From a virus (lineage: Duplodnaviria; Caudoviricetes), in IMG/VR virus record IMGVR_UViG_3300021375_000006: a stretch of DNA of 64,000 nucleotides; one strand, 5' to 3'. The notes beneath the pieces were generated by a model. The model was not told where the DNA came from. It saw only the letters and a list, made by a program, of their open reading frames with translations, and ran no database searches. The translations under genes and the position numbers were made by a program. Positions 5,111 to 43,257 of the stretch are shown here, piece after piece. The number at the start of each line of letters is the position of its first letter. The stretch's first letter is position 1.

Positions 5111-8100
5111 TTAAAAACATGCCTCACCCTGGCTAATGCTAGCATCCCAGCTGCTACCACCTGAATACCAATAAGGTTGATCTCCTGGGAAGCTTGAATC
5201 CGCTGCTGCTCTAGTAACACTATGACAGAAAGTGTCAGTACCATTTCCAGCATTTCCTCCACAACTCTGACCTCCACCAATTGGTGAAGTTGTAGTGGAT
5301 GCTGCATTACCACACGGCCAATATCTTACTATATTACAAGTACCGGACCTATTATCCAGTGTACTTGCAGTATAAGTATAACACTCTTCATCTACAGTTA
5401 CACTACCACCAATAGTCAAGGTAGCAGATGTGTCAGAAGTAGGAATCTCCCAGTTAAATGAAAATGGAGTATACAAACCTGAACCGGCAGTAGAACCTAT
5501 AGATACATTTGTAATATATGCACTACTCTCTGTTATTGTACTAATAACAGGATCAGTATATAGAGGTTGAGATGCCATTAAGTATCTAGTAAATGCACCT
5601 GTTGTTCCTGGATTACCAGAAACGTCTTCAGTAGTTCTCTCAGCAGCTAACTCATTTGTGCTGCTAGTAATTCTTGCTCCTGTAATAGACTCAGAGTAAT
5701 TAATTGTTAATGTTTGCTCAGAGTATTTTGAAACACCACTTGTAGTAACCGTTGCTGAATAACCAGATGTTGCATTTGAAGGCATTGAAACCGAAATCTC
5801 CACAGTACGAGTATTCAAATCAGCAGACGTTACAGAAACATTACCATTATTAGAGCTAGCCCCAAAGGTTACAAGATCTATACCAGCATCCATTATTATC
5901 GTTTGCTCTAATGTTGTAGAATTTCCTGGTGTAAGATTTACTGTTTGAGTTAGTGTATCGGAACCTGGAGTACCAGACCAAAAAGAACCATTAACTCCAT
6001 TAGACCATGTAATTGTAGCAGGGTATGTAATTAAATTAGAGCTACCCTGTGCCGTAACTGTTGCACTACCTCCACCAGATGGCATAATTACATTACCACT
6101 AATAGACTTACTACCAGGTTGGATAGTGGCAGTAACTGCACTTGTATTCGCACCTGTTTTTGATATATCAGTTATAGAAAAATCATATCCAGTACTAGCA
6201 CTATATGTAGTAGCCCAATCAATATCTGCACCAACAACACCTGTTAATGTATGTGTTGTAATATTTGGAGATACATTACTAATACTGTCATTTGTCGTAA
6301 GTGTAAATGTATGTGATGTTGCCGTTAATGTAGTATTTGCAGTAATTGTACCTGTGCTTGAATTACTAGATCTGGGATCTAAACTAGGCATAGTAAAGTC
6401 TATATCCATACCTTCTCCACCATAATTAGTTTCTGCAATTGTAAAATGACTTGGTTTTGAAATACTGTCAATTTCTGCTGTATAATCTGTAGAATTATTA
6501 GGCTGTACTGCAACCTCTATTCTATTTACAACGGTTCCGGCAACACCACTATAGGTAATTGTTACAGTACCATTAGAATTATTACTACCAGATACTGCGG
6601 TTGCGTTAGATGAAAGAGCTTCACTATAATTATTTACTTTTGATGAGGAGTTATTTGTTTGTACCGTCGCAGTATATGTGTAAATACGCTGTCTAATATC
6701 AGGTGTTACTGTAACTGTTAAGGCACCTCCACCGGAAGGTATACTTGCTGTACCTGATAAGTTAGAAGTATATGTGTTTGGTTCAGTAGCACTTCCGTTT
6801 AAAATACCGGATACGCCTACTGGATCTTCACTTCGCCATAGATAATTTAATGGAGTACTTATTTGTGCACTAGCGCTGACCGGATCTCCAGCTTCACCAG
6901 TAAATGTTTGAGTATATGTAGATGTACTACCATTGCTAAATGTACATGCTGGTGTTGTATTACTAGATGCCATAGACCATGTAACAGTATAAGTATATTC
7001 GTTTGTTGTTTGAGATCCTGTTACTGTCACTATTGCGCTACCACCACCCTGTGGCATTGATGCTAGAACAATATTAAGATCTGTAACTGAATGGTCTGTT
7101 ACGTGATTTCTATTTGAAACTAAATTTCCACTATCATCATTACTTACACCATTCTGTGTTCCACTTGTACCGACATAATATGTAGTATCTGCATCTTGGA
7201 ATGATAGCGGATGTGTTGTAGCGTGGAAACTACCAGTTGTACCAGTATAAGTAATATCTGGCCATGATGCTGTATCTGTATAAGGGTCAACAAACGTTAT
7301 TGTATATGTGTGGACTAATAGACCATCAGATTTACCTGAAACTGCTAGATTACAATCACCACCTCCTGCTGGCATTGTTACAGTACCAGTTACTCTTTTA
7401 TTAGTATTATCTATAGTATATGAAACTGCAGCCGTATCGTTTCCGGATTTGGTTACACCCGTTATATTAAAATCATCATAGTCAAAATCTGCACTAAGCT
7501 GTATTGTAAAATTAAAAGTATCACCAGTATATCCCGTGAATGTTTGTTGATATGGAGCTCCGTCAATTGAAACACCAGTAATAGATTCTGACGCTGTTAA
7601 ATTAAAAGAATATTCTGGTTGATTAACTTGTGCATTTACAAAAATTTCAACTTTACCACCACCAGATGGCATAGCAAAAGTACCTGTTAAGTCTTTATTT
7701 GCATCACTTAAAGTATATTTGTTCTGAAGTGCTAAATATGCGTTAGCACTATCTCCTTGGTGTGTTGCCGTTTTAAGAGTAAAATCATAATCAAGTGGGT
7801 TTGGAGTAAAACTAGAATCAAAGTCAAATTCTGTTCCCGTAGTCCCTGTAAACGTATATTTGTATGCTGATCTTGTATATGTACTAGACACGTTTACCCA
7901 ACCCGAATTTGGTACTTGTGTAACTACACTTGTAAAACCACCAGGTGAGAATGTACTACCATCATCCGCTGTAGTATCTCCAGTTCCGGTTCCTGGTTGA
8001 TCAGTCTCATCACCAACTATAATTAAATCAAAATTCCAATCATTTTCAGATGTAGTACCACTTATTTGTATATTATATTCTCCAGAAGCTTGAATATTAC

Positions 8101-31182: not shown

Positions 31183-31791
31183 TTAATATTTAGGTTTTTT
31201 TGCCTTCTTAGTATATATCTTTATGTTATCATACTCCTTCTCGAGAGATTTAACCAGCTTTAGATTAGCCACATCGTCATCGTAGAACTTAAAGTCAGTA
31301 TAACCCATGTTGATATATGTTTCAAATGCCTGTTTCTTTCTGTCAGCAATATTACCTGTAAATCCATGGACATTATCTGAAATAGCAAATATTAAGTCTT
31401 TGTCAATTCTAAATCCAACATGTTCTCTTAGCCACTTGTAAATCATCTCTCTGTCATCTCTAGCAGTTACAATACCGACTGCAATACCCTTCTTATAGTT
31501 TCTTTTGAAAATGTTTAAGTAGTATTCAATCAGCTTACCTGCTTTCATGATTTCAATATCAGAGAAATCAGTAAAGTCTAACTCATGTTGTTTCTTAGCT
31601 TCAAATTCGTTGAATTCTTCTGGAGTTAATGAGAAGCACTTGCCTGTGAAATGGTCACACACTTTAATCTTCGCGTCTGTAATCACTAGAGTGTCATCTA
31701 AGTCAAAGACCACGATCTCTGATTTAGAATAAGGTTTCTCTGTTACAAGAAAAGCCTCGAATGTTTTAATATGTTTCACTTGGCGTAACAA
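31183..31791 (-). CDS. HAD-superfamily phosphatase with a capsid-targeting-like N-terminus (probable GTG start at 31779)
   Basis: VVFDLDDTL, VTAR, FYDDD. Begins (M)KHIKTFEAFLVTE-K. Confidence 0.75.
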   Translation of the reverse strand: MLRQVKHIKTFEAFLVTEKPYSKSEIVVFDLDDTLVITDAKIKVCDHFTGKCFSLTPEEFNEFEAKKQHELDFTDFSDIEIMKAGKLIEYYLNIFKRNYKKGIAVGIVTARDDREMIYKWLREHVGFRIDKDLIFAISDNVHGFTGNIADRKKQAFETYINMGYTDFKFYDDDVANLKLVKSLEKEYDNIKIYTKKAKKPKY

Positions 31792-32503
31792 CTCCTCTTT
31801 TTTGTACTACTTTAGCTGACATTTCATTTGCATATTTAATTGAATGTTCTACATCTTTACTGTTAACATATTCAATTGCAAATGCTGCAACAAAAGTATC
31901 GCCGGCACCAGAAACATCAATAGTCTCTTGTGGTCTAGGGCTTGGGAATAGTTTATCTTGATATTCGGCGCCCTTTGCACCTAGAGTCGTAATAATGCCT
32001 GGATGTTCCAGCTTATTATTATTTATCCTTTCAGATTCATTTAATTTAATAAATGTATAATTAGCCATCATTTTATTAGTTAAAGGTCTCTTACTATCAA
32101 TAATTGATAACGGAGCCATTAAACCAATATCATAGATGTCTTTGTTAGACAAGAAGCCTTTATTATAGTCACTGACTATCACTAGGTCATACCCCTCTAA
32201 GTAGGTTAGGTCTTTATCAAATGTAGAAATCTGCTCTTCACCCTCATCGTATCTGATGAACATGTGGTTAGATTTCTTTTCTACGAATCTTGTTTTTGTA
32301 ATCTGTTCTGATTGAGTCCATAACTCAATATTGGCATCGGGGGCAATAGCCAAGCAATTAGCCATTGTATTGCCTGCCATCCCTGGATTTTCTATAGTTT
32401 CTACAGGAGTAATAACAGGTACTGGCGCTTCAGGGGACAGACGTCCCACATTACCGTATATAAATCTATCGGTACAGCTATCTCCTATAATTAATATTTT
32501 CAT
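31766..32503 (-). CDS. hldA: D-glycero-D-manno-heptose-7-phosphate kinase (HldE/RfaE kinase domain, PfkB family)
   Basis: IIGDSCTDRFIYG, RLSPEAPVPV, SDYNKG, DVSGAGDT. Confidence 0.85.
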   Translation of the reverse strand: MKILIIGDSCTDRFIYGNVGRLSPEAPVPVITPVETIENPGMAGNTMANCLAIAPDANIELWTQSEQITKTRFVEKKSNHMFIRYDEGEEQISTFDKDLTYLEGYDLVIVSDYNKGFLSNKDIYDIGLMAPLSIIDSKRPLTNKMMANYTFIKLNESERINNNKLEHPGIITTLGAKGAEYQDKLFPSPRPQETIDVSGAGDTFVAAFAIEYVNSKDVEHSIKYANEMSAKVVQKRGVVTPSETY

Positions 32504-32865
32504 CCTTGGGAATCTCCTTTGCGAATTCTGTAGCTATCTTCATCGAAGTGTTGTGTTGATACTTCAAATATTTCTGAGCCATCTTCTAGTGCTACTAACT
32601 GATGTGGTTGGCCTCTTTCAATGGTGATACATGCACCTTCTTTTACTATTGTAGAATCTTCTACTGCACCTTCGGTATCAATCCAGATATATTCAAATGA
32701 ACCCTTACCAACATACCAAGACTCTTTCTTAATAATATGATAATGCATTGAGAATCTACTACCCTTCTTATGAAATCTTAGTAATTTTCCACAATACTCT
32801 TCGTCGTTGTGAATCCAAATCTCTTCGCCCCATGCTTTAGGTACTATTTTAGGTTGTACTATCAT
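32500..32865 (-). CDS. Cupin sugar-phosphate isomerase-like protein
   Basis: VPKAWGEEIW, SMHYH..K.E, GQPH, IFEVST cupin motifs. Confidence 0.7.
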   Translation of the reverse strand: MIVQPKIVPKAWGEEIWIHNDEEYCGKLLRFHKKGSRFSMHYHIIKKESWYVGKGSFEYIWIDTEGAVEDSTIVKEGACITIERGQPHQLVALEDGSEIFEVSTQHFDEDSYRIRKGDSQG

Positions 32866-33581
32866 AATTCTTCTATTCTTTTTGCTTTGTCATCAATAAC
32901 CAAGTCAAAGCTGGGTTTTGTTTCTAAACCTGACTCAGACCAACCCACCACTAAGTTATTGTACTTACATCCCCATTCATTGAGTTGTGCCGTTGTCAAA
33001 TTAGTTAAATCTCTTTTTGAATGACCACCTCTAGCTGTCCAATATGTAATATGCCAGCCAGCTTCATATAGTTTATTTATTTTGCTTATATTAGTCGCAT
33101 TAGGTTTAGCATTTTGATATACTCTTTTACCCTCGTAGAAACAAATGGTTTCATCTATATCAACGTATGCCTTCTTTTGATCAGTATTATATAATTTGCT
33201 TTCTAGTACCTCAGTGGTCGAGTAGTCGCCTATTCGATCAAAGAAAACTACTTCACCAGCATGTTCTGCGCCTACGATTTCTTTGCCCTTCCAATCAGAG
33301 CCCACTACCATTACATCTGGTTTGAATTTAGCCACTAGATCAATTAGACCCTGTTTAGTATCAAAGGTCTCTACTAGATCAATATATTGAATGGATTCTA
33401 GAGCGAACTTTCTATCCTCTAGTTTATTATGAGGTCTATCTGGGCCCTTTGCCCTAGCCACCTTTTCGTCTGAGTCAATGCCTACAATAACTTTATCGCC
33501 TAATTCACTGGCAAATTTAAAGAGCTCAAAGTGACCTCTATGTAGAACATCAAAACATCCATTAACCCAAACTCTTTTCAT
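32862..33581 (-). CDS. hldC: Heptose-1-phosphate nucleotidyltransferase (HldE/RfaE domain II) fused to a C-terminal HAD phosphatase domain
   Basis: NGCFDVLHRGH, VGIDSD, VVGSDW, GDYSTT, then YVDIDETI, YWTARG, IDDKA. Confidence 0.8.
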   Translation of the reverse strand: MKRVWVNGCFDVLHRGHFELFKFASELGDKVIVGIDSDEKVARAKGPDRPHNKLEDRKFALESIQYIDLVETFDTKQGLIDLVAKFKPDVMVVGSDWKGKEIVGAEHAGEVVFFDRIGDYSTTEVLESKLYNTDQKKAYVDIDETICFYEGKRVYQNAKPNATNISKINKLYEAGWHITYWTARGGHSKRDLTNLTTAQLNEWGCKYNNLVVGWSESGLETKPSFDLVIDDKAKRIEEL

Positions 33582-33616: not shown

Positions 33617-34540
33617 CTAATTGTTTCCTCTAGAACCTGAAGATCTGCTGCGTGAATTACTACTTGAAGAAGAACTAGAACGTCTAGTAGGTGGAGGTGT
33701 TGTAGATCTAACGTTATTAGTACTTCTATTGTTAACGTTATTTGGTACTCTAGGTTTCCAGTTATTGTTTCTTGTATTATTAGGATTTACTCTAATATTA
33801 TTGTTATTATCATTAGGTCTTCTATAGATTCTTACAGTCTCACCATTATCTCTAATGATTACATTATTATCCGGGTTAATTCTAGGATTATTGTATGATC
33901 TTACTGTACGAGTATTATTACTATTAGTTCTACGTCTATTAACATTAGACTCAATTGTAGAATTAGTTCTATTAGAGACTATGCTACTACCTCTTCTACC
34001 ATTTACATAAACGGTATTGGGTCTATTTCTATGTTGCCATGCATAGTTGTTCATTCTCCATCTCCAGTTCCAGTCATTGTAATATCCATTCCAGCCATAG
34101 TAACTATTCCAACCCCAGCCCCAGTGAGCATTGCCCATCCAGTTATTATATCCCCATCTATCATATCCAAATAGTGACCATCTATGTGGTGTGAAACCCC
34201 ATACCCAGTCATTCCACATTTGATCTCTATTCCAGTAGTAGCCATAATAAGGGCTGTTCCAACCATATCTAGTACCTAATAATCTATTATTCCAATCAAA
34301 TGATCTAGGTTGACTTAGAGCATATTGTGCAAAGTCATATCTAAATTGAAAATCTGTTCTTAATCTATTTCTAAATTGAAATTCATTTAGGGTATCAATA
34401 GCTACATCATCTGAAACCACTATATAATTTTCATCATCATATATTGGGTCATAATTAAGTGTTGATACGTGCCAGTTAACTCCACATGATGTTAATAAAA
34501 CTAGTGATAGAATTGTAAGTAATCTTTTAAGTGTTTTCAT
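33617..34540 (-). CDS. Bacteroidota-type lipoprotein with a W/Y/G/N-rich region and a disordered R/S/N tail
   Basis: Lipobox LLTS-C and low-complexity composition. Confidence 0.6.
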   Translation of the reverse strand: MKTLKRLLTILSLVLLTSCGVNWHVSTLNYDPIYDDENYIVVSDDVAIDTLNEFQFRNRLRTDFQFRYDFAQYALSQPRSFDWNNRLLGTRYGWNSPYYGYYWNRDQMWNDWVWGFTPHRWSLFGYDRWGYNNWMGNAHWGWGWNSYYGWNGYYNDWNWRWRMNNYAWQHRNRPNTVYVNGRRGSSIVSNRTNSTIESNVNRRRTNSNNTRTVRSYNNPRINPDNNVIIRDNGETVRIYRRPNDNNNNIRVNPNNTRNNNWKPRVPNNVNNRSTNNVRSTTPPPTRRSSSSSSSNSRSRSSGSRGNN

Positions 34541-34554
34541 ATATTTGTTTTATG

Positions 34555-34878
34555 TTATTTTTCTTTGTATTCCTGAAATGCTTCACTATTTGGTAGATCT
34601 TTCTCTATTTGTAAAGACCATAGTGAGCTATTTGGGACTACGAACTTTCTTCCATGGCCATAAACATAAAACGTAGTTTTCCAAATAGTTTGTCTAACTA
34701 TTCTTGCTTTCTTTGTACCTTTAATATAGACTACGTCATCTATATCAAAATCAGTACCCATCAAAAACTTCATACCGCTAAAAAAGTTGGCTATTGCATC
34801 TTTAAATGCTAAACCAGCTAAAGCAGCGATTGTTAACCAACCCCATTCTCCAATATACTGTGATAATAACTCTTCCAC
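34555..34878 (-). CDS. Minimal MscS-like membrane protein
   Basis: GLAFKDAIANFFSG...FDIDDVVYI...VVPNSSL matches the MscS TM3/beta-domain pattern. Confidence 0.6.
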   Translation of the reverse strand: MEELLSQYIGEWGWLTIAALAGLAFKDAIANFFSGMKFLMGTDFDIDDVVYIKGTKKARIVRQTIWKTTFYVYGHGRKFVVPNSSLWSLQIEKDLPNSEAFQEYKEK

Positions 34879-35372
34879 TATATTAATCCTTTGTTTGTTA
34901 GATTCTGCAGTAAACTGTATTGACTAATCATTACATGTTTTACCGCTTCATCTCTATTCATAAATACAGCTCGGTCTACTTCTTTTAACTGTAGTTGGCC
35001 CTTAGGAATTTCTAATCCTTTCAGACCGATTTCCGCTAGATCTTTTATCTCTACAATATAGTAGTGTACAACCTTGTTATATTTGTACTTTCTACTGGTA
35101 ACTGTAAACGTAAAAGCATCTTTATTGATTAAAGATTTAGGTACTTTAATACCAAACTCTTCTCTAGTCTCTCTGATTGCTGCATCTAAAATTGATTCTC
35201 CTTCATCAATTCCACCCTTTGAAATACCATACGATGCTAGCTTCTTTCTGCCAGTGCTATGTCCTAATAGAACTTTGCCATCATGTACAATGGCCAAACC
35301 TGCAGACCGTCTCTCTTCCAGAAACTTCTTAGCCTCGTTAATATAGTTATCAAAGTTTGCAATTCTTTTCAT
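34878..35372 (-). CDS. NUDIX hydrolase with a capsid-targeting-like N-terminus
   Basis: GGIDEGESILDAAIRETREEFG Nudix box. Starts MKRIANFDNYINE-A. Confidence 0.8.
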   Translation of the reverse strand: MKRIANFDNYINEAKKFLEERRSAGLAIVHDGKVLLGHSTGRKKLASYGISKGGIDEGESILDAAIRETREEFGIKVPKSLINKDAFTFTVTSRKYKYNKVVHYYIVEIKDLAEIGLKGLEIPKGQLQLKEVDRAVFMNRDEAVKHVMISQYSLLQNLTNKGLI

Positions 35373-36532: not shown

Positions 36533-36737
36533 CTTTCTTAGTTTTTATTTTTGGTTCGCTAATTATTTTAACGTAACTATCTTTTGCTTTTTTAACACAC
36601 TTTGCACAAAATGGTGTATAATAACCCACTTCATCCGGTTTAGCCCAGTTGCCTGACTTACCGACTGTGTACATTTCTTTATCTGGAAAGTCGCCCAAAC
36701 AATTTGAGCATACTGTCATTCTTACAGCTCTAGGCAT
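36507..36737 (-). CDS. Small Zn-finger-like protein
   Basis: CSNC...CAKC. Confidence 0.45.
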   Translation of the reverse strand: MPRAVRMTVCSNCLGDFPDKEMYTVGKSGNWAKPDEVGYYTPFCAKCVKKAKDSYVKIISEPKIKTKKDEKTNKKN

Positions 36738-37638
36738 CTCTCTGTTCTTTTATCCATTGTAGAACATTAACACTAGGCCTCCACTCTAACATCTGTGTAA
36801 TTAATGATATATCTGCTCTCGATCTTTTCGGTTCTTCTCGCTCTTCGATATGTACAATCTCACCACCGAATTGCTCTGCTATTTCTAGAATTTCAGTCTC
36901 TTCACCATAGGCAACGTTCCAGATCGGCATTGACTCAAATCCACCATTAGGTCTGGTTAGTGCTGCAAAACAGGCTTCTACTACATCACCAACATAGACA
37001 AAGTCTCTGGTTTGTCTGCCATCACCTGTGACAGTGATAGGTTGATATGATTCAAACTGTTTCTTAAAGATAGGAATGGCACTAACATAGCCCACGTCGT
37101 CTGGTTGACCTTCTCCAAATACATTAAAGAATCTTAAGGCTGCACATTGAGTATCTATAGTATGATATTGTTCTAATAGAGATTCCATCTCTAGTTTATA
37201 CTCAGCATACGGAGACATTGGTGCTGGAGTAGCCTGTTCGTTGAATGGTATATCTTGGCTATCACCGTAGACTGCGGCCGTTGAGGCTGCAACGATAGAT
37301 TTGGCACCTCTTTCTGTTGCCCATCTAAATACTCTTTCTGAACCACCGAATATACCTCTAAAATACTTCTCCCAATCTTCTAGTGACTCTTGTACTGAAA
37401 CCGGTGAAGCTAGATGTAATACATAGTCTATATTTTTAATATCTGGCATTGGACCGGCTGCAATATCACATTCATAAACCTTTAATCCAGCTGGTAGATT
37501 ACCAGACGGTAGAGTTAAATTCTCTAGTTTACCTGTGTAAAAATTATCAAGTACTGTAACCTGCCATCCACGTTCTAGTGCTTGCCAAACCGCGTGATGT
37601 CCAATAAATCCGGCGCCGCCTGTTATTACTATATGCAT
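36730..37638 (-). CDS. NAD-dependent nucleotide-sugar epimerase/dehydratase (GalE-like extended SDR)
   Basis: TGGAGFIG, ASTAAVYG, PYAEYK, RFFNVFG, TRDFVYV. Confidence 0.85.
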   Translation of the reverse strand: MHIVITGGAGFIGHHAVWQALERGWQVTVLDNFYTGKLENLTLPSGNLPAGLKVYECDIAAGPMPDIKNIDYVLHLASPVSVQESLEDWEKYFRGIFGGSERVFRWATERGAKSIVAASTAAVYGDSQDIPFNEQATPAPMSPYAEYKLEMESLLEQYHTIDTQCAALRFFNVFGEGQPDDVGYVSAIPIFKKQFESYQPITVTGDGRQTRDFVYVGDVVEACFAALTRPNGGFESMPIWNVAYGEETEILEIAEQFGGEIVHIEEREEPKRSRADISLITQMLEWRPSVNVLQWIKEQRDA

Positions 37639-37893: not shown

Positions 37894-38760
37894 TTATACA
37901 AGCCATTCTCTCAAAGTTTCAAAAACCTTTTCAGGAGTAATTGCTTTATGACATTCAAATTCTCTATCAGTATCAGCATGTTTTGGACACCAATACCAAT
38001 TGCTACCATCAAATTTTTCTGTATGCCAACATCCATGACAGACAGATTCATCTGTTATTCTTTTATAGTCCTCTATTGATAGATCAAATTCATTCCAATC
38101 TTTTGTAAAATTAGAAATCATTACTACAGGTTTACCTAAAGCATGTGCTACCCAAGCCAAACCAGACGAAGGTCCAATATAAAACTTAGAATGCCATATC
38201 CAATTAATAACCTCTTTTAAATCTACAAAAACCTTATGGGCCTCTTCAGGCAATCCATTCCAATGTGGAGGTTTACCAAATAGTTCATGGTTTGATAAAC
38301 AAACAGGTGTTGTACCTGTAGTTTTTATCATCTTACATAATTCATTCCAATTAGTAGCAAGAGTTTGACCTTCTCGACCATCTGTAGAATTCCAATATTT
38401 TAATTGGGATGTACTATGAACACCAAACGTAACATAAGGTTGTTCCATTGGCCTATCCTTTAATATACGATCTATTTTAGGTCTAATATATGCTGGGTTT
38501 TCAAAACCTAATTGCTCTGCATAACCAGCTTGAATAGCTTTATCAAATTTATACCATATTCTAATAATATCTTCCTCTTGCCAACCATCTAACGTATCAG
38601 TAAAAAGAATACTTGGATAACTCCACTTAAATAAATCTTTAAAAATAAGATTAGTCTTAACTGTAACTGGAGTATCATGCTGTTCAGACCATAGTTGAAC
38701 ATAGGGTAATGCAGCAACCAGATCTCCTAATGAATGGCTATTTAAGTCAATTAGTTTCAT
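37894..38760 (-). CDS. Aah/TibC-like (BAHT-family) protein O-heptosyltransferase
   Basis: SLGD, HSTSQLKYWN, FYIGPSSGLAWVAHALGKPVVMIS and the iron-finger CHGCW...WCPKH...FEC. Confidence 0.75.
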   Translation of the reverse strand: MKLIDLNSHSLGDLVAALPYVQLWSEQHDTPVTVKTNLIFKDLFKWSYPSILFTDTLDGWQEEDIIRIWYKFDKAIQAGYAEQLGFENPAYIRPKIDRILKDRPMEQPYVTFGVHSTSQLKYWNSTDGREGQTLATNWNELCKMIKTTGTTPVCLSNHELFGKPPHWNGLPEEAHKVFVDLKEVINWIWHSKFYIGPSSGLAWVAHALGKPVVMISNFTKDWNEFDLSIEDYKRITDESVCHGCWHTEKFDGSNWYWCPKHADTDREFECHKAITPEKVFETLREWLV

Positions 38761-39580
38761 GTAAATAGTTTAAGTAATCTTGTAAACCTTCTTCCAATTG
38801 AAATTCAGGTCTCCATTTTGGCATCCATTTACCTCTATCACTACATGTGAAATACTGATAGCCTTTAGGTATCTTTTCTTCTGGGTGATATTTATATGGT
38901 ATATCCATGATTTCCATCTTCTCTTCAAACTCTCTAGCCTGACCACTACCCACTTCAAACCAATTACCCCACAGATCATCGACAAAGGCTCTAGAGCCAT
39001 TCTTAAATGCAAAGATATTAGCTGATACTACATCTTTAATATAGACAAAATCTCTAAGTGGTTTGTTTCTAAATAGTTTTACTTCTTCTCCAGCTTGGTG
39101 TCTTTTAAACATCTGATATGCAACTGATGCCATTCTACCTTTATCCTCTTCACCTGGACCATATACATTAAAGTATCTTAATGCAATTCCACCGTTCGAG
39201 ATTACATAACCCTCGCCAGCATATTTTGACCAACCATATAGATTAGCTGGATATTCTTTATTTGTACCATAGTTTGCAGCAGAAGAAGAGTAGATTAGTT
39301 TTACCTGATTTTGTTTACATAGATCAGTCAGATATTTTGTCACCTCGTAATTAAGTAACATCATATAATTAACATCTTGCTCTAGTGTATCTGAACATGC
39401 ACCGACATGAAAACAAGCATCTAGTTTTAGTGCAAAGATTTCATTTAGGTTTAACTTCCAGTTATCTTTTAGATCTCTCTCTTCAAATGTAACTACTTCC
39501 CAACCCTGTTTTTCTAATTCTGCCTTTAGGCTTCTACCAATAAATCCTTCCGTACCTGTAACTAATGCTTTCATATCCAA
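38747..39580 (-). CDS. hldD: ADP-L-glycero-D-manno-heptose 6-epimerase
   Basis: FHVGACSDT, YSSSAANYG, NLYGWSK, RYFNVYGPGEEDKGRMASV, RDFVYIKDV. Confidence 0.85.
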   Translation of the reverse strand: MDMKALVTGTEGFIGRSLKAELEKQGWEVVTFEERDLKDNWKLNLNEIFALKLDACFHVGACSDTLEQDVNYMMLLNYEVTKYLTDLCKQNQVKLIYSSSAANYGTNKEYPANLYGWSKYAGEGYVISNGGIALRYFNVYGPGEEDKGRMASVAYQMFKRHQAGEEVKLFRNKPLRDFVYIKDVVSANIFAFKNGSRAFVDDLWGNWFEVGSGQAREFEEKMEIMDIPYKYHPEEKIPKGYQYFTCSDRGKWMPKWRPEFQLEEGLQDYLNYLHETN

Positions 39581-41847
39581 TTATCTTGTTTTAATTTTTG
39601 CCAAACATATTCTGGTGTAATTGTTTTTGTACATTCAAAATGTCTAGGTGTATCTTTGTGTTCTGGACACCAGTTCCAGTCACCTCTATCAAATACACGA
39701 TAGGTCCAACAGCCTGAACATACATTTGTATTAATAATTCTAATAGCTGGTTCAAATTCAATAAAAGACCAAGTAAATCCACTAATTAAACAGACTTTTA
39801 CGTCTAATGCCCATGCTAACCAGCTTAAACCAGAACCAATACCAATAAAATAACCACTGGCTCTCATCTGTTGACCTACTTTAAAAAGAGAAGATTCAGA
39901 ACCATCTGATACTCTTTCTATATTCTGTAAATGAGTAGTTTCTTTTGAACAATAATGTACATCCCAGTTTTGTGTTTTAAATTCATTTATTAAATCTTGC
40001 CAACCAGTTGGATGTTGCCATTCTTTAGCACCAGCAGTTCCTCGAGGGCCAATACAAACTGATGAATTATCTTTATCTTCTATTAAAGTATTTTGATAAA
40101 ATATAGGTGCCATCTTAGGTTTACGTTCCATATAAAAGATTCCTAAACGATCAGCTGCAATCGCACCAATCGGAACTGTTCTCCAATCTCTCTTATGCTT
40201 ATGTTTTACTGAAGGTTGATTATCTTCTTGATAAACACCTAAAGTCTGCCAATTCTGTGGCCAATATTCATGTGGAGAAACTGGTATAATACCTATCTTC
40301 CTATAATAACTCCAATCAAATAAATCTTGATGGTATAACCTAACATAAATAGTATCGTAATCTCTTTGTTGTTTTAGTTCTTCTACTTGACCCATCCAAC
40401 TAATTGTATCTCCTAATGAACTAGACTCGAATTGAATACCTATTTCCCTTTCTTCTGGTTTTAATACCTGTACTATTTGATTAGTTTTTTTCTTAACAAT
40501 ACGGCATTCCCATCTTTCATACCAATCCATTGCGTAGCGAGACCATAAATTTTCAAATAGATCTACCTTTAGATACATTTTATCTTTTAGCCAAAATTGA
40601 GCCTCGTATGATTTATCTTCAGGTGCCCAATCACAATGTAGTTCTGGTCCTGATCTATGATAAAATCTACAAATAGGTTTATTACCAACTCTATCTATAG
40701 TATATCTAAATTGCCTAAAGAAAGAATACCAATTACCATCAGGCCATAGTCGCTCTGTTTGATTAATAAGTATATTTGTCCATTCGTTTAAATCATACTC
40801 TGTAGTTTTAACTTGAGTGGCATCATTAAAAACCAACATACTAAATCTTTGAAAATCATTACCTACTTTACTAGGAATTGAGCTTAAATTATCATTAGCC
40901 CAAGCTACGATTATATTATTATGTGGTTGGTTAAATTTAATATTTTTACTTGGATATAAAAAATTAATTTTATCCTTTTGTTGTTGTGTAATCTCAGTTT
41001 CAGTATAAACAGAGAACTCTTTTATATCATTTAACCATTCACATGCCTGGATAGCAGAAGTAATATGCCAAACATCTTCATATAAAAATAAAGTATTATG
41101 TGGTTTTGATGATTCGATAAGAGGTTTTGCATTAATATTAAATTCTGCATGTTCTTGTTCTGTCATACTACCAGAGTCAGAACCTGGCCTTCTAACGTAC
41201 GTATATAAATTTCTAGGTATATGTACATGTTTACCTCTTGCTGTATTGTAGAATAAAAAGAATGTATCTGTGGATGTTTTGCACTCTTTAACAATAGGTA
41301 ATTTACTAACATCTGGTTTACGCATTGCTCGACCATGGCCAAACATTTTTTGAGTATTTCTATTTGAATAGATTTCCCAAAATTCTGAATTATGTCTAAA
41401 ATTCCACTCTAGGGCAAGATCGTCTGCTGGTTGTACTAATGACCATTGTTCTAAATCTCCATCAGGTGTTGTTTGAAAATAATCTGAAAATATAGAATAG
41501 ACTTGTGGATACGCTTGAAAATGATTATCATATATTTCAAATAATTCTTTATCTAAAATATCATCCGTATCTAAATCAAAATAGTAATCATATTCTAAAT
41601 GTTGAAATGTATTTTGGTATAAATAAAGTTCTCTTCTATTTTCTAAATGATAATAAATAATTCTTTTATCATTTAATTCTTCAACTCTCTTTCTTAATCT
41701 ACGTCTAAACTCAGGATCTTTAGATCCATCATCAGCTACGATTAATAACCAATCATTATGTGTTTGTTTTAATACATTATCGAATGTCAAGTCGATATGT
41801 TCGTCTGGATTATTATGAAAACTGGCTACTGCTAAAAACCTACCCAT
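39571..41847 (-). CDS. GT2-like domain fused to an Aah/TibC-like heptosyltransferase domain
   Basis: N-terminal ADDGS and DLDTDD. C-terminal SSLGDTISW, FIGIGSGLSWLAWAL, CSGCW...WCPEH...HFECTKTIT. Confidence 0.75.
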   Translation of the reverse strand: MGRFLAVASFHNNPDEHIDLTFDNVLKQTHNDWLLIVADDGSKDPEFRRRLRKRVEELNDKRIIYYHLENRRELYLYQNTFQHLEYDYYFDLDTDDILDKELFEIYDNHFQAYPQVYSIFSDYFQTTPDGDLEQWSLVQPADDLALEWNFRHNSEFWEIYSNRNTQKMFGHGRAMRKPDVSKLPIVKECKTSTDTFFLFYNTARGKHVHIPRNLYTYVRRPGSDSGSMTEQEHAEFNINAKPLIESSKPHNTLFLYEDVWHITSAIQACEWLNDIKEFSVYTETEITQQQKDKINFLYPSKNIKFNQPHNNIIVAWANDNLSSIPSKVGNDFQRFSMLVFNDATQVKTTEYDLNEWTNILINQTERLWPDGNWYSFFRQFRYTIDRVGNKPICRFYHRSGPELHCDWAPEDKSYEAQFWLKDKMYLKVDLFENLWSRYAMDWYERWECRIVKKKTNQIVQVLKPEEREIGIQFESSSLGDTISWMGQVEELKQQRDYDTIYVRLYHQDLFDWSYYRKIGIIPVSPHEYWPQNWQTLGVYQEDNQPSVKHKHKRDWRTVPIGAIAADRLGIFYMERKPKMAPIFYQNTLIEDKDNSSVCIGPRGTAGAKEWQHPTGWQDLINEFKTQNWDVHYCSKETTHLQNIERVSDGSESSLFKVGQQMRASGYFIGIGSGLSWLAWALDVKVCLISGFTWSFIEFEPAIRIINTNVCSGCWTYRVFDRGDWNWCPEHKDTPRHFECTKTITPEYVWQKLKQDNWI

Positions 41848-42862
41848 TTCTTACTTCCATTATTTTATTAAACACTTGATCTGGACCTGGTTGACACTTA
41901 AATTCAGAATACCCTTCTAAACAAGATGGATAATAAGGTAAGTTATTTATAGACTTCCAATGTTTAACTGAATATTTAGGATCTGTAGCACAAAATATTT
42001 TACAATCACTACCTACAAAATGAAATTTATAGTCTTGTGATGCATATCTATATGGTGCAGTCTTTCTTGGATCGATAGATGCGCCTATTTGAAATATATG
42101 AGAATCTGTACACCCTGCTAAGTGGATTGGACCAGCATCAAAAGAAACTAATCCAAATGCATTATTTAAAACATGGTACAATTCAGAAATTGGTCTAAAT
42201 ACAGATGCTTCTTCTTGTTTACCTGGTGTATCATCACCATAATTATAGTCAATACCATTTAGATCTACTAGCCCTTTTACAATTTCACCTTCTGAAGTCC
42301 CCTCTCTATGAGCTTTACCGATCAAGACTATCTTCATATCGGTATGTTCTTTAATTAGATCAACTAGTCTTTGCCAGTGTTCTAATGGCCAAGTTCTATT
42401 AGGCCAATTCTCAGTAGGGTGGATAACAATACAGTTATCGTCAATCTTTAATGAGTCTTCAGTTTGTTCTTCTGGAAAATAGTCATAGTGTAAATCTTCA
42501 GGGTAAAGTGAAATACCTAGGCCTAAAGCGTGGTGTTGTCTCGCTTCAAAATTACTTAATTTAATTTGTACTCTACTATCTCTCTCCTGGTCTTGCCACA
42601 TGTTTCTATTTCCTTTAATCCAATGATTATAGGTTTCAAAAATCTCAGTATAGCCTTCAGGATCTTCATCTGTATATTTTAGTAATTTATCAACATAGGG
42701 AGATCTTTCGTAAATATCTGTGCGTCTACACATTACATCTACTTTATGCCCATAAGACTCCGCTGCTTTACGTACAGTTGGAGTAGAGCATATTGTGTCG
42801 CCCAATGCAGGGCAACTAACTTTAATTAAAACTTTAGAACTATTTCCAGGTAGGTCTATCAC
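41840..42862 (-). CDS. GT9-family heptosyltransferase-like protein with four C-terminal Cys
   Basis: ALGDTICSTP, VIHP, RTWPLEHW, SFDAGPIHLA, CKIFC...C...C. Confidence 0.7.
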   Translation of the reverse strand: MIDLPGNSSKVLIKVSCPALGDTICSTPTVRKAAESYGHKVDVMCRRTDIYERSPYVDKLLKYTDEDPEGYTEIFETYNHWIKGNRNMWQDQERDSRVQIKLSNFEARQHHALGLGISLYPEDLHYDYFPEEQTEDSLKIDDNCIVIHPTENWPNRTWPLEHWQRLVDLIKEHTDMKIVLIGKAHREGTSEGEIVKGLVDLNGIDYNYGDDTPGKQEEASVFRPISELYHVLNNAFGLVSFDAGPIHLAGCTDSHIFQIGASIDPRKTAPYRYASQDYKFHFVGSDCKIFCATDPKYSVKHWKSINNLPYYPSCLEGYSEFKCQPGPDQVFNKIMEVRNG

Positions 42863-43257
42863 TTATATTCTTCATAAGACTTCTCTTCGACTAGAAGAGA
42901 GCCAGTTAAAAGATTGATCTTTTTCTTCACCTCCGCTCTCTCGTCGTTAGTAAAATAAACAGATCTTGCTAATTCAACAAAGTCATCTTCGAAATCTTTC
43001 TTAGACTCATGTACTCTAATGTGGTCTTCTATATTCCATAACGTTTGATTAATGTCCTGTAAGTCTTTATGTAACTTTTTCATCTCTGGACGATCTAGTT
43101 CACTTAGAGCCTCGTACATATTATGAACAATAGGTGCTAATACATCGTACTCTGTTTGTACGTTTTTTAATTTGGCTTCATCTTTAATTTGTTCTAATTT
43201 GATAGCCAAAATAGTGAGTTTGTCTAGAATCTCACCGTTTGATACTTCTATTTTCAT
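42859..43257 (-). CDS. DUF6165-like protein (usually found beside glycosyltransferases)
   Basis: EVSNGEILDKLTILAIK...LWNIED...ELARSVYFTNDER...EEKSY (family recalled, unverified). Confidence 0.65.
   Translation of the reverse strand: MKIEVSNGEILDKLTILAIKLEQIKDEAKLKNVQTEYDVLAPIVHNMYEALSELDRPEMKKLHKDLQDINQTLWNIEDHIRVHESKKDFEDDFVELARSVYFTNDERAEVKKKINLLTGSLLVEEKSYEEYK

Follow-up and report, generated by a model that had tools for sequence, protein, structure and literature searches.

A cupin gene in a predicted phage heptose cassette is a likely functional analog of the phosphoheptose isomerase gene gmhA

The virus record IMGVR_UViG_3300021375_000006 (Duplodnaviria; Caudoviricetes) was analyzed as a single stretch of 64 kb, hereafter the window, nearly all of whose genes are on the minus strand. 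Four of its open reading frames (ORFs) lie head to tail on that strand (33581..31183) and encode a nucleotidyltransferase-HAD fusion protein, a cupin, a pfkB kinase and a second HAD-like protein. The subject of this report is the cupin gene (32500..32865, minus strand), which has an ATG start and encodes a single-domain protein of 121 aa with a predicted 3His-1Glu metal site (H41, H43, E48, and H88). We propose that this protein is a sedoheptulose-7-phosphate isomerase and, as such, a functional analog of GmhA. The preceding gene (32862..33581, minus strand) encodes the 239-aa fusion protein, to whose transferase and HAD phosphatase domains we attribute the proposed fourth and third steps of the pathway, respectively, and the following gene (31766..32503, minus strand) encodes a short pfkB kinase of 245 aa, of the HldE domain I (rfaE-domain-I) type, which is the proposed heptose-7-phosphate 1-kinase of the second step. 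These three genes are joined by two ATGA overlaps (plus-strand tcat at 32862-32865 and 32500-32503), the first between the transferase stop codon and the cupin start codon and the second between the cupin stop codon and the kinase start codon. The last gene of the four (31183..31791, minus strand) encodes a 202-aa HAD-like protein with a DLDDT motif, weak Pfam matches to HAD IIIB and DUF2608, and similarity to phrog_415 and phrog_1238. It is kept directly after the kinase gene in contigs with an identical cupin and may represent an alternative or additional phosphatase.

Residues 1-128 of the 239-aa fusion protein correspond to a heptose-1-phosphate nucleotidyltransferase of the HldE domain II type (TIGR02199, 107 bits; PF01467, 58.6 bits), with the glycerol-3-phosphate cytidylyltransferase family scoring 74 on the same protein. 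The HAD domain, at approximately residues 130-239, has a DIDET motif, and the C-terminal part of the fusion protein matches phrog_1238. The kinase scored 110.5 bits against TIGR02198, versus 45 bits for ribokinase, and 238 bits against phrog_8133. The TIGR02199 and TIGR02198 scores of the transferase and kinase are both under the curated equivalog cut-offs. At 245 aa, the window kinase lacks about 70 residues relative to HldE domain I (315 aa). It belongs to a large viral family (phrog_8133), relatives being encoded in 578 IMG/VR stretches, and the short form was also seen in one Patescibacteria genome. An HldD-like epimerase and GT9-type glycosyltransferases are encoded 4-10 kb upstream of the cassette on the same strand. 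We expect the sugar of the cassette to be a heptose, based on the fact that the kinase and transferase both match HldE best and that the window also encodes an HldD homolog and a GT9 heptosyltransferase. Judged by sequence, then, the window is predicted to encode a kinase, phosphatase, transferase and 6-epimerase of heptose synthesis and, likely, heptosyltransferases.

Heptose synthesis is textbook bacterial envelope biochemistry in which GmhA is regarded as an indispensable first enzyme; GmhA has also been investigated as a target against virulence. In the pathway we propose for the phage, whose substrate, reaction, metal and order of steps are all predicted, the cupin would turn host sedoheptulose-7-phosphate into D-glycero-D-manno-heptose-7-phosphate (the GmhA reaction, EC 5.3.1.28) and the short HldE-type kinase would then make heptose-1,7-bisphosphate. 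The HAD domain fused to the transferase would remove the 7-phosphate, and the HldE-type nucleotidyltransferase would make a nucleoside diphosphate (NDP)-heptose, probably ADP-heptose, to be taken by the HldD-like epimerase and the GT9-type glycosyltransferases. With one domain type for each of the four steps, such a phage could make activated heptose without host heptose genes. We consider it likely, from sequence and context, that the cupin is a metal-dependent sedoheptulose-7-phosphate isomerase of the type II phosphomannose isomerase (PMI) kind that replaces the unrelated GmhA.

The initial annotation of this DNA had called the ORF at 32500-32865 a cupin gene, had noted its overlaps with a heptose kinase gene and a nucleotidyltransferase gene, and had remarked on the lack of an SIS-fold gmhA in the window. 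Our analyses bore out all of these observations. The ORF is on the minus strand, encodes 121 aa and its product scores above the Cupin_2 cut-off; both ATGA overlaps are present; and a tblastn search of the 64-kb window with E. coli GmhA and a phage SIS protein returned nothing better than E = 3.7, while the best score of a small GmhA hidden Markov model over all 506 six-frame window ORFs was 8 bits. For this phage the absence of GmhA refers to the window only. GmhA was also not found in 30 kinase- or cupin-bearing viral contigs that were searched whole, complete genomes included: it was absent from all five complete cupin phages of 214-276 kb (E ≤ 0.01) and from 25 further kinase contigs, those without a nearby cupin (E ≤ 0.001). 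Four of these 25 contigs are at least 82% complete, and three of the four have a cupin elsewhere, with neither gene in the other one. Close IMG/VR relatives are only 4-50% complete and their lack of gmhA says little.

The cupin scored 29.7 bits against Pfam Cupin_2 (PF07883; cut-off 27.2), placing it in the cupin superfamily. Cupin motif 1 is complete (G35-x5-H41-x-H43-x4-E48-x6-G55) and motif 2 supplies His88, all of these residues being invariant in 39 homologs, as are K10, W12, G13, E15, K27, K46, H106, and the stretch D110-S-Y-R113. The AlphaFold2 model of the protein is an all-beta barrel (mean pLDDT 91.6), to which Foldseek matched at least 500 solved chains at E ≤ 0.001, with cupins filling the rows listed. 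In a structural search of Swiss-Prot, the best 17 matches were all PMI domains of AlgA, XanB, and ManC, with root-mean-square deviations of 1.2-3.4 Å (1.2-1.4 Å for ten of them) over 113-119 residues. A profile alignment with E. coli ManC, of weak statistics (hhalign E = 0.009), placed K10-x-W-G on R-P-W-G, S-M-H-Y-H-I-I-K-K-E-S-W on S-V-Q-M-H-H-H-R-A-E-H-W, and H88 on the last His. Against solved structures the VIA-align Z scores were effectively tied, at 15.9 for the CapF cupin domain, 15.1 for KdgF, 14.7 for a Thermococcus PMI and 14.0 for a D-lyxose/mannose isomerase, and the family profile had no significant sequence match among solved structures (best E = 0.068). The modeled fold alone would not take the assignment beyond a cupin that is a sugar isomerase or epimerase.

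Comparisons with curated families gave a similar range of relatives. The nearest was WbuC (TIGR04366), for which the cupin is a borderline miss at 41.2 bits versus a cut-off of 42. The Lyx_isomer score (PF07385) was 16.4 bits, under the cut-off of 20.8, and this family is called on 45-63% of the members of sister clusters in the ESM Atlas, where the cupin family itself is almost wholly viral. The C-terminal part of the type II PMI profile TIGR01479 scored 15.5 bits on the window cupin (E = 0.0056), which is below the profile threshold, and PF01050 is reached by relatives (L224, G033) and by kinase-fused forms from bacteria of the Candidate Phyla Radiation (CPR). In a phylogenetic tree, the phage cupins, the stand-alone CPR cupins and the kinase-fused cupins form one clade (support 97/94), on a long branch far from the ManC PMI domain.

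Cupin relatives are encoded in 268 IMG/VR stretches. In the closest of them (72-87% identity) the transferase, HAD, cupin and kinase genes are side by side in varying order, and about 30 of 80 cupin-anchored loci have at least one of the kinase, transferase and HAD genes within their 8-kb flanks. The five complete cupin phages belong to the more distant relatives (58-67% identity); all have a match to the HldE-type transferase, four have the short pfkB kinase and one has an HddA-type kinase (335 bits). Kinase loci were collected with a kinase alignment (A2), since one protein as query had retrieved just 12 in viruses. In the best 80 kinase-anchored loci of the 578 viral stretches encoding kinase relatives, genes within 10 kb included a cupin in 42, a transferase in 50 and an HAD in 31, with no SIS gene in any. 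These loci show at least four gene orders, and the linkage of cupin, kinase, transferase and HAD survives this shuffling.

Members or relatives of the cupin family were also seen in other fusions. In one viral contig (L037:7911-9062) a protein of 383 aa joins a cupin of the same family to an FkbM-type methyltransferase. The 266-kb IMG/VR genome G033 encodes a 643-aa triple fusion (L223:3058-4989) of an N-terminal PMI-type cupin (PF01050), an NTP_transferase domain and an APH-like kinase, adjoined by a collagen-repeat protein and an HAD; this protein looks like another one-protein route to sugar activation.

The strongest test of the proposal came from CPR genomes, in which the cupin stands, or is fused, at the operon position of gmhA next to the kinase. 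We sampled 301 Patescibacteria genomes, which are metagenome bins of unknown completeness, and found a strong HldE kinase (199-376 bits) in 24. Twenty of these 24 have gmhA (140-208 bits), directly beside the kinase gene in 19 cases. In the remaining four no gmhA was detected even at E ≤ 1, beyond trivial SIS matches, and two of these four, G114 and G276, carry the cupin. The G114 operon consists of cupin, HldE kinase (275 bits), GmhB (181 bits versus a curated cut-off of 178) and transferase genes, and its cupin has 52% identity to that of the window and scores 136 bits against the family profile. G276 encodes a 439-aa fusion of the kinase (315 bits) with a C-terminal cupin, and its gene cluster also includes genes for a GT9 heptosyltransferase and a short-chain dehydrogenase/reductase (SDR) at a distance of about 2-3 kb. 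Ortholog-grade cupins (>100 bits) occur in four CPR genomes, none of which has gmhA.

Fusions of PfkB with Cupin_2 are widespread, forming at least 108 protein clusters, mostly of 430-470 aa and mostly from Parcubacteria-type CPR, the majority of which also match PF01050. Two such fusion loci are each on a contig of about 1.1 Mb: in one the kinase-cupin fusion is followed by an HAD, a cytidylyltransferase-like enzyme and a GT9, and in the other by a transferase-HAD fusion like that of the window, an SDR and a GT9. No SIS gene was seen near either locus. Additionally, a Shapirobacteria genome encodes an HAD-cupin fusion beside a full-length HldE.

Among GenBank phages, 35 records contain the cupin, all from cyanomyoviruses or marine single-cell viruses; 31 of these 35 also contain the short kinase, which occurs in no other record. 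GmhA-like genes are present in 13 records, none of which is a cupin record. The P-SSM2 operon encodes a transferase, kinase, HAD and cupin, the HAD being annotated as "phosphoheptose isomerase" and the cupin as "cysteine dioxygenase." We considered whether the "phosphoheptose isomerase" of cyanophages is a hidden gmhA and rejected this, as these genes belong to the HAD domain family phrog_1238, which is unrelated to the cupin. Both phrog_1238 and the genes so annotated represent HAD-type phosphatase domains (window 32862-33260; L222:4658-5002; L081:3055-3405), and the mislabel recurs in P-SSM2, S-SM2, S-CAM1, S-CAM3, S-T4, and Sf-CH8.

Cyanophage SynMITS9220M01 has a different module, in which the cupin gene is situated between genes for an NTP_transferase-fold enzyme (HddC among its best matches, 60 bits) and an HddA-like GHMP kinase (287 bits; next family 99), with GDP-mannose-dehydratase-like and reductase genes downstream. 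By sequence similarity, this module is predicted to follow a route of the GDP-heptose type, with the alpha anomer. Neither its kinase nor its transferase is homologous to the counterpart in P-SSM2 and the window, and yet the P-SSM2 and SynMITS9220M01 cupins are sisters (100/99 support). The presence of sister cupins in a beta-type (pfkB/cytidylyltransferase) and an alpha-type (HddA/HddC) module points to a step shared by the two. This would be the isomerase step: an isomerase and a phosphatase are all that the alpha and beta routes have in common, and the phosphatase is accounted for by HAD domains. The same phage (L082 8902-11263, L083) also encodes a fusion of NTP_transferase and RpiB alongside a pfkB kinase and an HAD, and it may run three modules, each with its own isomerase fold (cupin, RpiB, and SIS).

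Non-orthologous replacement of GmhA appears to be the most economical explanation of these data, because the four domain types recur together, fuse in several pairings and match a four-step pathway, and because the cupin has the fold and motifs of enzymes that convert ketose phosphates to manno-aldose phosphates and occupies the place of gmhA. The initial annotation had suggested that the cupin is a new first enzyme for heptose synthesis; linkage, fusions, the gmhA-slot position, the absence of GmhA and the PMI-like fold all argue that this is probably correct. As to the accompanying question of whether cupin and gmhA exclude each other beside hldE, the gmhA-less CPR genomes G114 and G276 have the cupin in the gmhA slot and fused to the kinase, respectively, and the GenBank sets are disjoint, whereas SynMITS9220M01 has both the cupin and a weak SIS protein. 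More broadly, on balance we favor the view that there is a second, metal-dependent cupin class of sedoheptulose-7-phosphate isomerase that evolved independently, that heptose cassettes of T4-like and jumbo phages from the sea, cultured cyanophages such as P-SSM2 among them, have it as their standard first enzyme, that it also serves many lineages of CPR/Patescibacteria, frequently as a fusion with the kinase, and that GmhA is not the universal entry enzyme of heptose synthesis.

Several observations weigh against this interpretation. The top solved structure by VIA-align Z score is the CapF cupin domain (15.9), statistically tied with PMI (14.7), and in the Pfam search the window cupin had no match to PF01050 at E ≤ 0.01. 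More distant cupins (58-67% identity) adjoin genes for UvdE, thymidylate synthase (ThyA) or deformylase, and in many large phages the kinase gene is tens of kb away. One kinase phage, G027, which is 91% complete, has neither the cupin nor gmhA, and GmhA may be provided by the host. Homologs with 40-47% identity occur in two Poseidonibacter genomes and in the CPR genomes G200 and G181, all without a heptose kinase of either type and without gmhA, and the cupin family may have more than one use. Lastly, SynMITS9220M01 encodes, in addition to the cupin, an SIS protein that is weakly similar to GmhA (47 bits) and adjoins a second GHMP kinase; this weakens strict mutual exclusion, although it still fits a cupin in the isomerase slot.

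Poseidonibacter had been a candidate for cultured support of the heptose reading, and we rejected it as such because its genomes have no HldE or HddA kinase and no GT9. In these isolates (L113:3964-4804 and L115:7980-8811) the cupin gene (40-43% identity) is beside a cytidylyltransferase-like gene and a GT1 glycosyltransferase gene, a pair that may belong to a different pathway.

Three other functions for the cupin have to be considered, beginning with that of a sugar-nucleotide or heptose-phosphate epimerase of the CapF, RmlC or WbuC kind, which would alter the stereochemistry of an NDP-heptose while GmhA comes from the host or from an unseen phage gene. Cupin C3/C5 epimerases that act on GDP-heptoses are known from Campylobacter, and two SDR enzymes that could make keto-intermediates are encoded 4-7 kb from the cupin gene. 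The CapF cupin domain, the best VIA-align match, is an NDP-sugar epimerase domain, which acts on a UDP-4-keto sugar after a dehydratase step, and WbuC is the nearest curated family. However, the Z scores of CapF, KdgF, PMI and lyxose isomerase lie within less than 2 of each other, so that the CapF and WbuC similarity that favors an epimerase is a tied one. The genomic context favors an earlier step: the cupin accompanies the kinase, HAD and transferase also at loci that have no SDR in the vicinity, it is fused to the kinase, an early enzyme, in the 108 or more clusters described above, and it takes the operon slot of gmhA in genomes that lack gmhA. If its substrate were the finished nucleotide sugar, the cupin would also need to accept differing nucleotides and anomers, which is improbable given the sister cupins of the alpha- and beta-type modules. 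We therefore regard an epimerase as unlikely.

The PMI-like fold suggests a second alternative, that of an ordinary PMI converting fructose-6-phosphate to mannose-6-phosphate and supplying mannose to the cassette or to host GDP-mannose pools, an activity that could partly coexist with heptose synthesis if the enzyme were promiscuous. The closest reviewed folds are indeed PMI domains, JGI calls the homologs "mannose-6-phosphate isomerase-like," and PF01050 is reached by the more distant relatives and fused CPR forms. Yet the neighbors are heptose-specific (the G114 GmhB above its curated cut-off, HldE kinases of 275-315 bits, HldD, and GT9 heptosyltransferases), the operon has no phosphomannomutase or GDP-mannose pyrophosphorylase, the distribution of the cupin complements that of gmhA and not that of manA, and the cupin family is a clade of its own, far from the ManC PMI domain; on these grounds we think a plain PMI quite unlikely. 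Less probable still is an unrelated role, for instance as a dioxygenase, small-molecule sensor or hydrolase, with some other cause for its association with the cassette. Dioxygenases and decarboxylases, which are among the fold matches, share the 3His-1Glu cupin site, many phages have the cupin beside UvdE, ThyA or deformylase, and homologs occur in genomes with no heptose kinase. The "cysteine dioxygenase" label itself is that of RefSeq cyanophage annotations and of phrog_7851, which matches the cupin at 126.6 bits and is the same viral family; the label seems to derive only from generic cupin similarity, the B. subtilis cysteine dioxygenase being one among many equally distant fold matches, and genomic context lends it no support. 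Repeated independent fusions to the kinase, HAD and transferase, together with the in-place replacement of gmhA, would be difficult to account for if the cupin had no part in the pathway.

The remaining genes of interest in the window are all on the minus strand. The HldD-like SDR (38747..39580), a homolog of ADP-L-glycero-D-manno-heptose 6-epimerase, has full-length similarity to E. coli RfaD/HldD (33% identity, E = 6e-40) and matches Pfam Epimerase. A second NAD-dependent sugar-nucleotide epimerase/dehydratase of the SDR type (36730..37638; PF01370, 159 bits; PF16363, 120 bits) has only 26% identity to RfaD. The GT9-family glycosyltransferase (41840..42862), of the heptosyltransferase family, scored 37.9 bits against PF01075 (cut-off 22), aligns with E. 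coli WaaC (E = 2e-6) and is a likely consumer of NDP-heptose. Adjacent to it is a gene for a 758-aa protein (39571..41847) with an N-terminal GT2 domain (PF00535, 35.9 bits) and a weakly GT9-like C-terminal part (PF01075, 16.1 bits, under the cut-off), and a 288-aa protein (37894..38760) has a sub-threshold GT9-like signal (PF01075, 17.3 bits versus 22). A DUF6165 protein (42859-43257; 55.5 bits) ends this glycosyltransferase block and is in the same place in contigs with an identical cupin.

Directly upstream of the cassette (33617-34540) is a gene for a protein of 307 aa that has a lipoprotein-like signal (LLTSC), a low-complexity body extremely rich in Asn, Trp and Arg, and no family match. 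Further upstream is a NUDIX hydrolase gene (34878..35372, minus strand; PF00293, 46.2 bits), whose link to the cassette is uncertain. The NUDIX gene is at this spot in the window and in L243, while other contigs with an identical cupin have a PAP2 phosphatase gene instead (L242/L244/L245 at 7330-7971 and equivalents). NUDIX genes also adjoin the cupin gene in two cellular loci (L111 and L116).

Our literature searches on cupins with heptose or sedoheptulose isomerases, on phage heptose and on non-orthologous GmhA found no proposal of a cupin phosphoheptose isomerase. The pathway and the isomerase fold are already known, and what is new is the family that would carry out the first step. If correct, the assignment would define a new, non-homologous enzyme family for EC 5.3.1.28 and would explain how activated heptose is made from a central metabolite by phages whose hosts may make none. 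It would also complete the pathway in many CPR genomes, in which metabolic reconstruction would otherwise call it broken, and would correct widespread cyanophage mislabels, namely the cupin as "cysteine dioxygenase" or "putative nucleotidyltransferase" and the HAD as "phosphoheptose isomerase." A cross-kingdom survey of heptose enzymes (Tang et al., 2024), as described in commentaries on it, searched by homology to the classical four enzymes and reported the phosphatase to be missing in viruses. The HAD domain fused to the transferase would account for this viral phosphatase.

Among known systems, GmhA (SIS fold, TIGR00441, EC 5.3.1.28) shares with the cupin the proposed reaction and place in the pathway, as the cupin is at, or fused at, the gmhA position beside the HldE kinase in CPR operons. 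The two have no sequence or fold relation, GmhA being an SIS alpha/beta domain and the cupin a beta-barrel with a 3His-1Glu site, and our claim is accordingly one of functional analogy only. The C-terminal isomerase domain of the type II PMI/GDP-mannose pyrophosphorylases (AlgA, XanB, and ManC/CpsB; PF01050) resembles the cupin in its fold, its K/R-x-W-G and S-x-H/Q-x-H-x2-K/R-x-E-x-W motifs and its final His, and its chemistry, the conversion of a ketose phosphate to a manno-configured aldose phosphate, is of the type that we predict for the cupin. Unlike that domain, the cupin is a stand-alone protein of 121 aa with 19-25% identity to it, scores below PF01050, belongs to a separate clade and is found in a heptose and not a mannose context.

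Other single-domain cupins that isomerize manno or lyxo sugars are the minimal archaeal PMIs of Thermococcus (PDB 7zvy and 7zvm; ~110 aa) and the D-lyxose/D-mannose isomerases (PDB 7nzo, PF07385; ~180 aa), with Z scores of 14.0-14.7; the D-lyxose isomerases differ in acting on unphosphorylated sugars, and the window cupin is below the PF07385 cut-off, at 14-22% identity. The CapF/WbjC cupin domain and WbuC (TIGR04366) of L-FucNAc clusters have the best structure and curated-family scores and a similar setting in surface-sugar gene clusters, but the partners of the window cupin are the kinase, phosphatase and transferase of heptose synthesis. Lastly, the bacterial routes to ADP-L-glycero-beta-D-manno-heptose (GmhA, HldE, GmhB, and HldD) and GDP-D-glycero-alpha-D-manno-heptose (GmhA, HddA, GmhB, and HddC) have homologs of their kinases, phosphatase, transferases and epimerase in the window or its relatives, whereas in the window the transferase has an HAD domain as its fusion partner instead of the kinase, which is shortened to 245 aa, and the cupin would take the place of the first enzyme.

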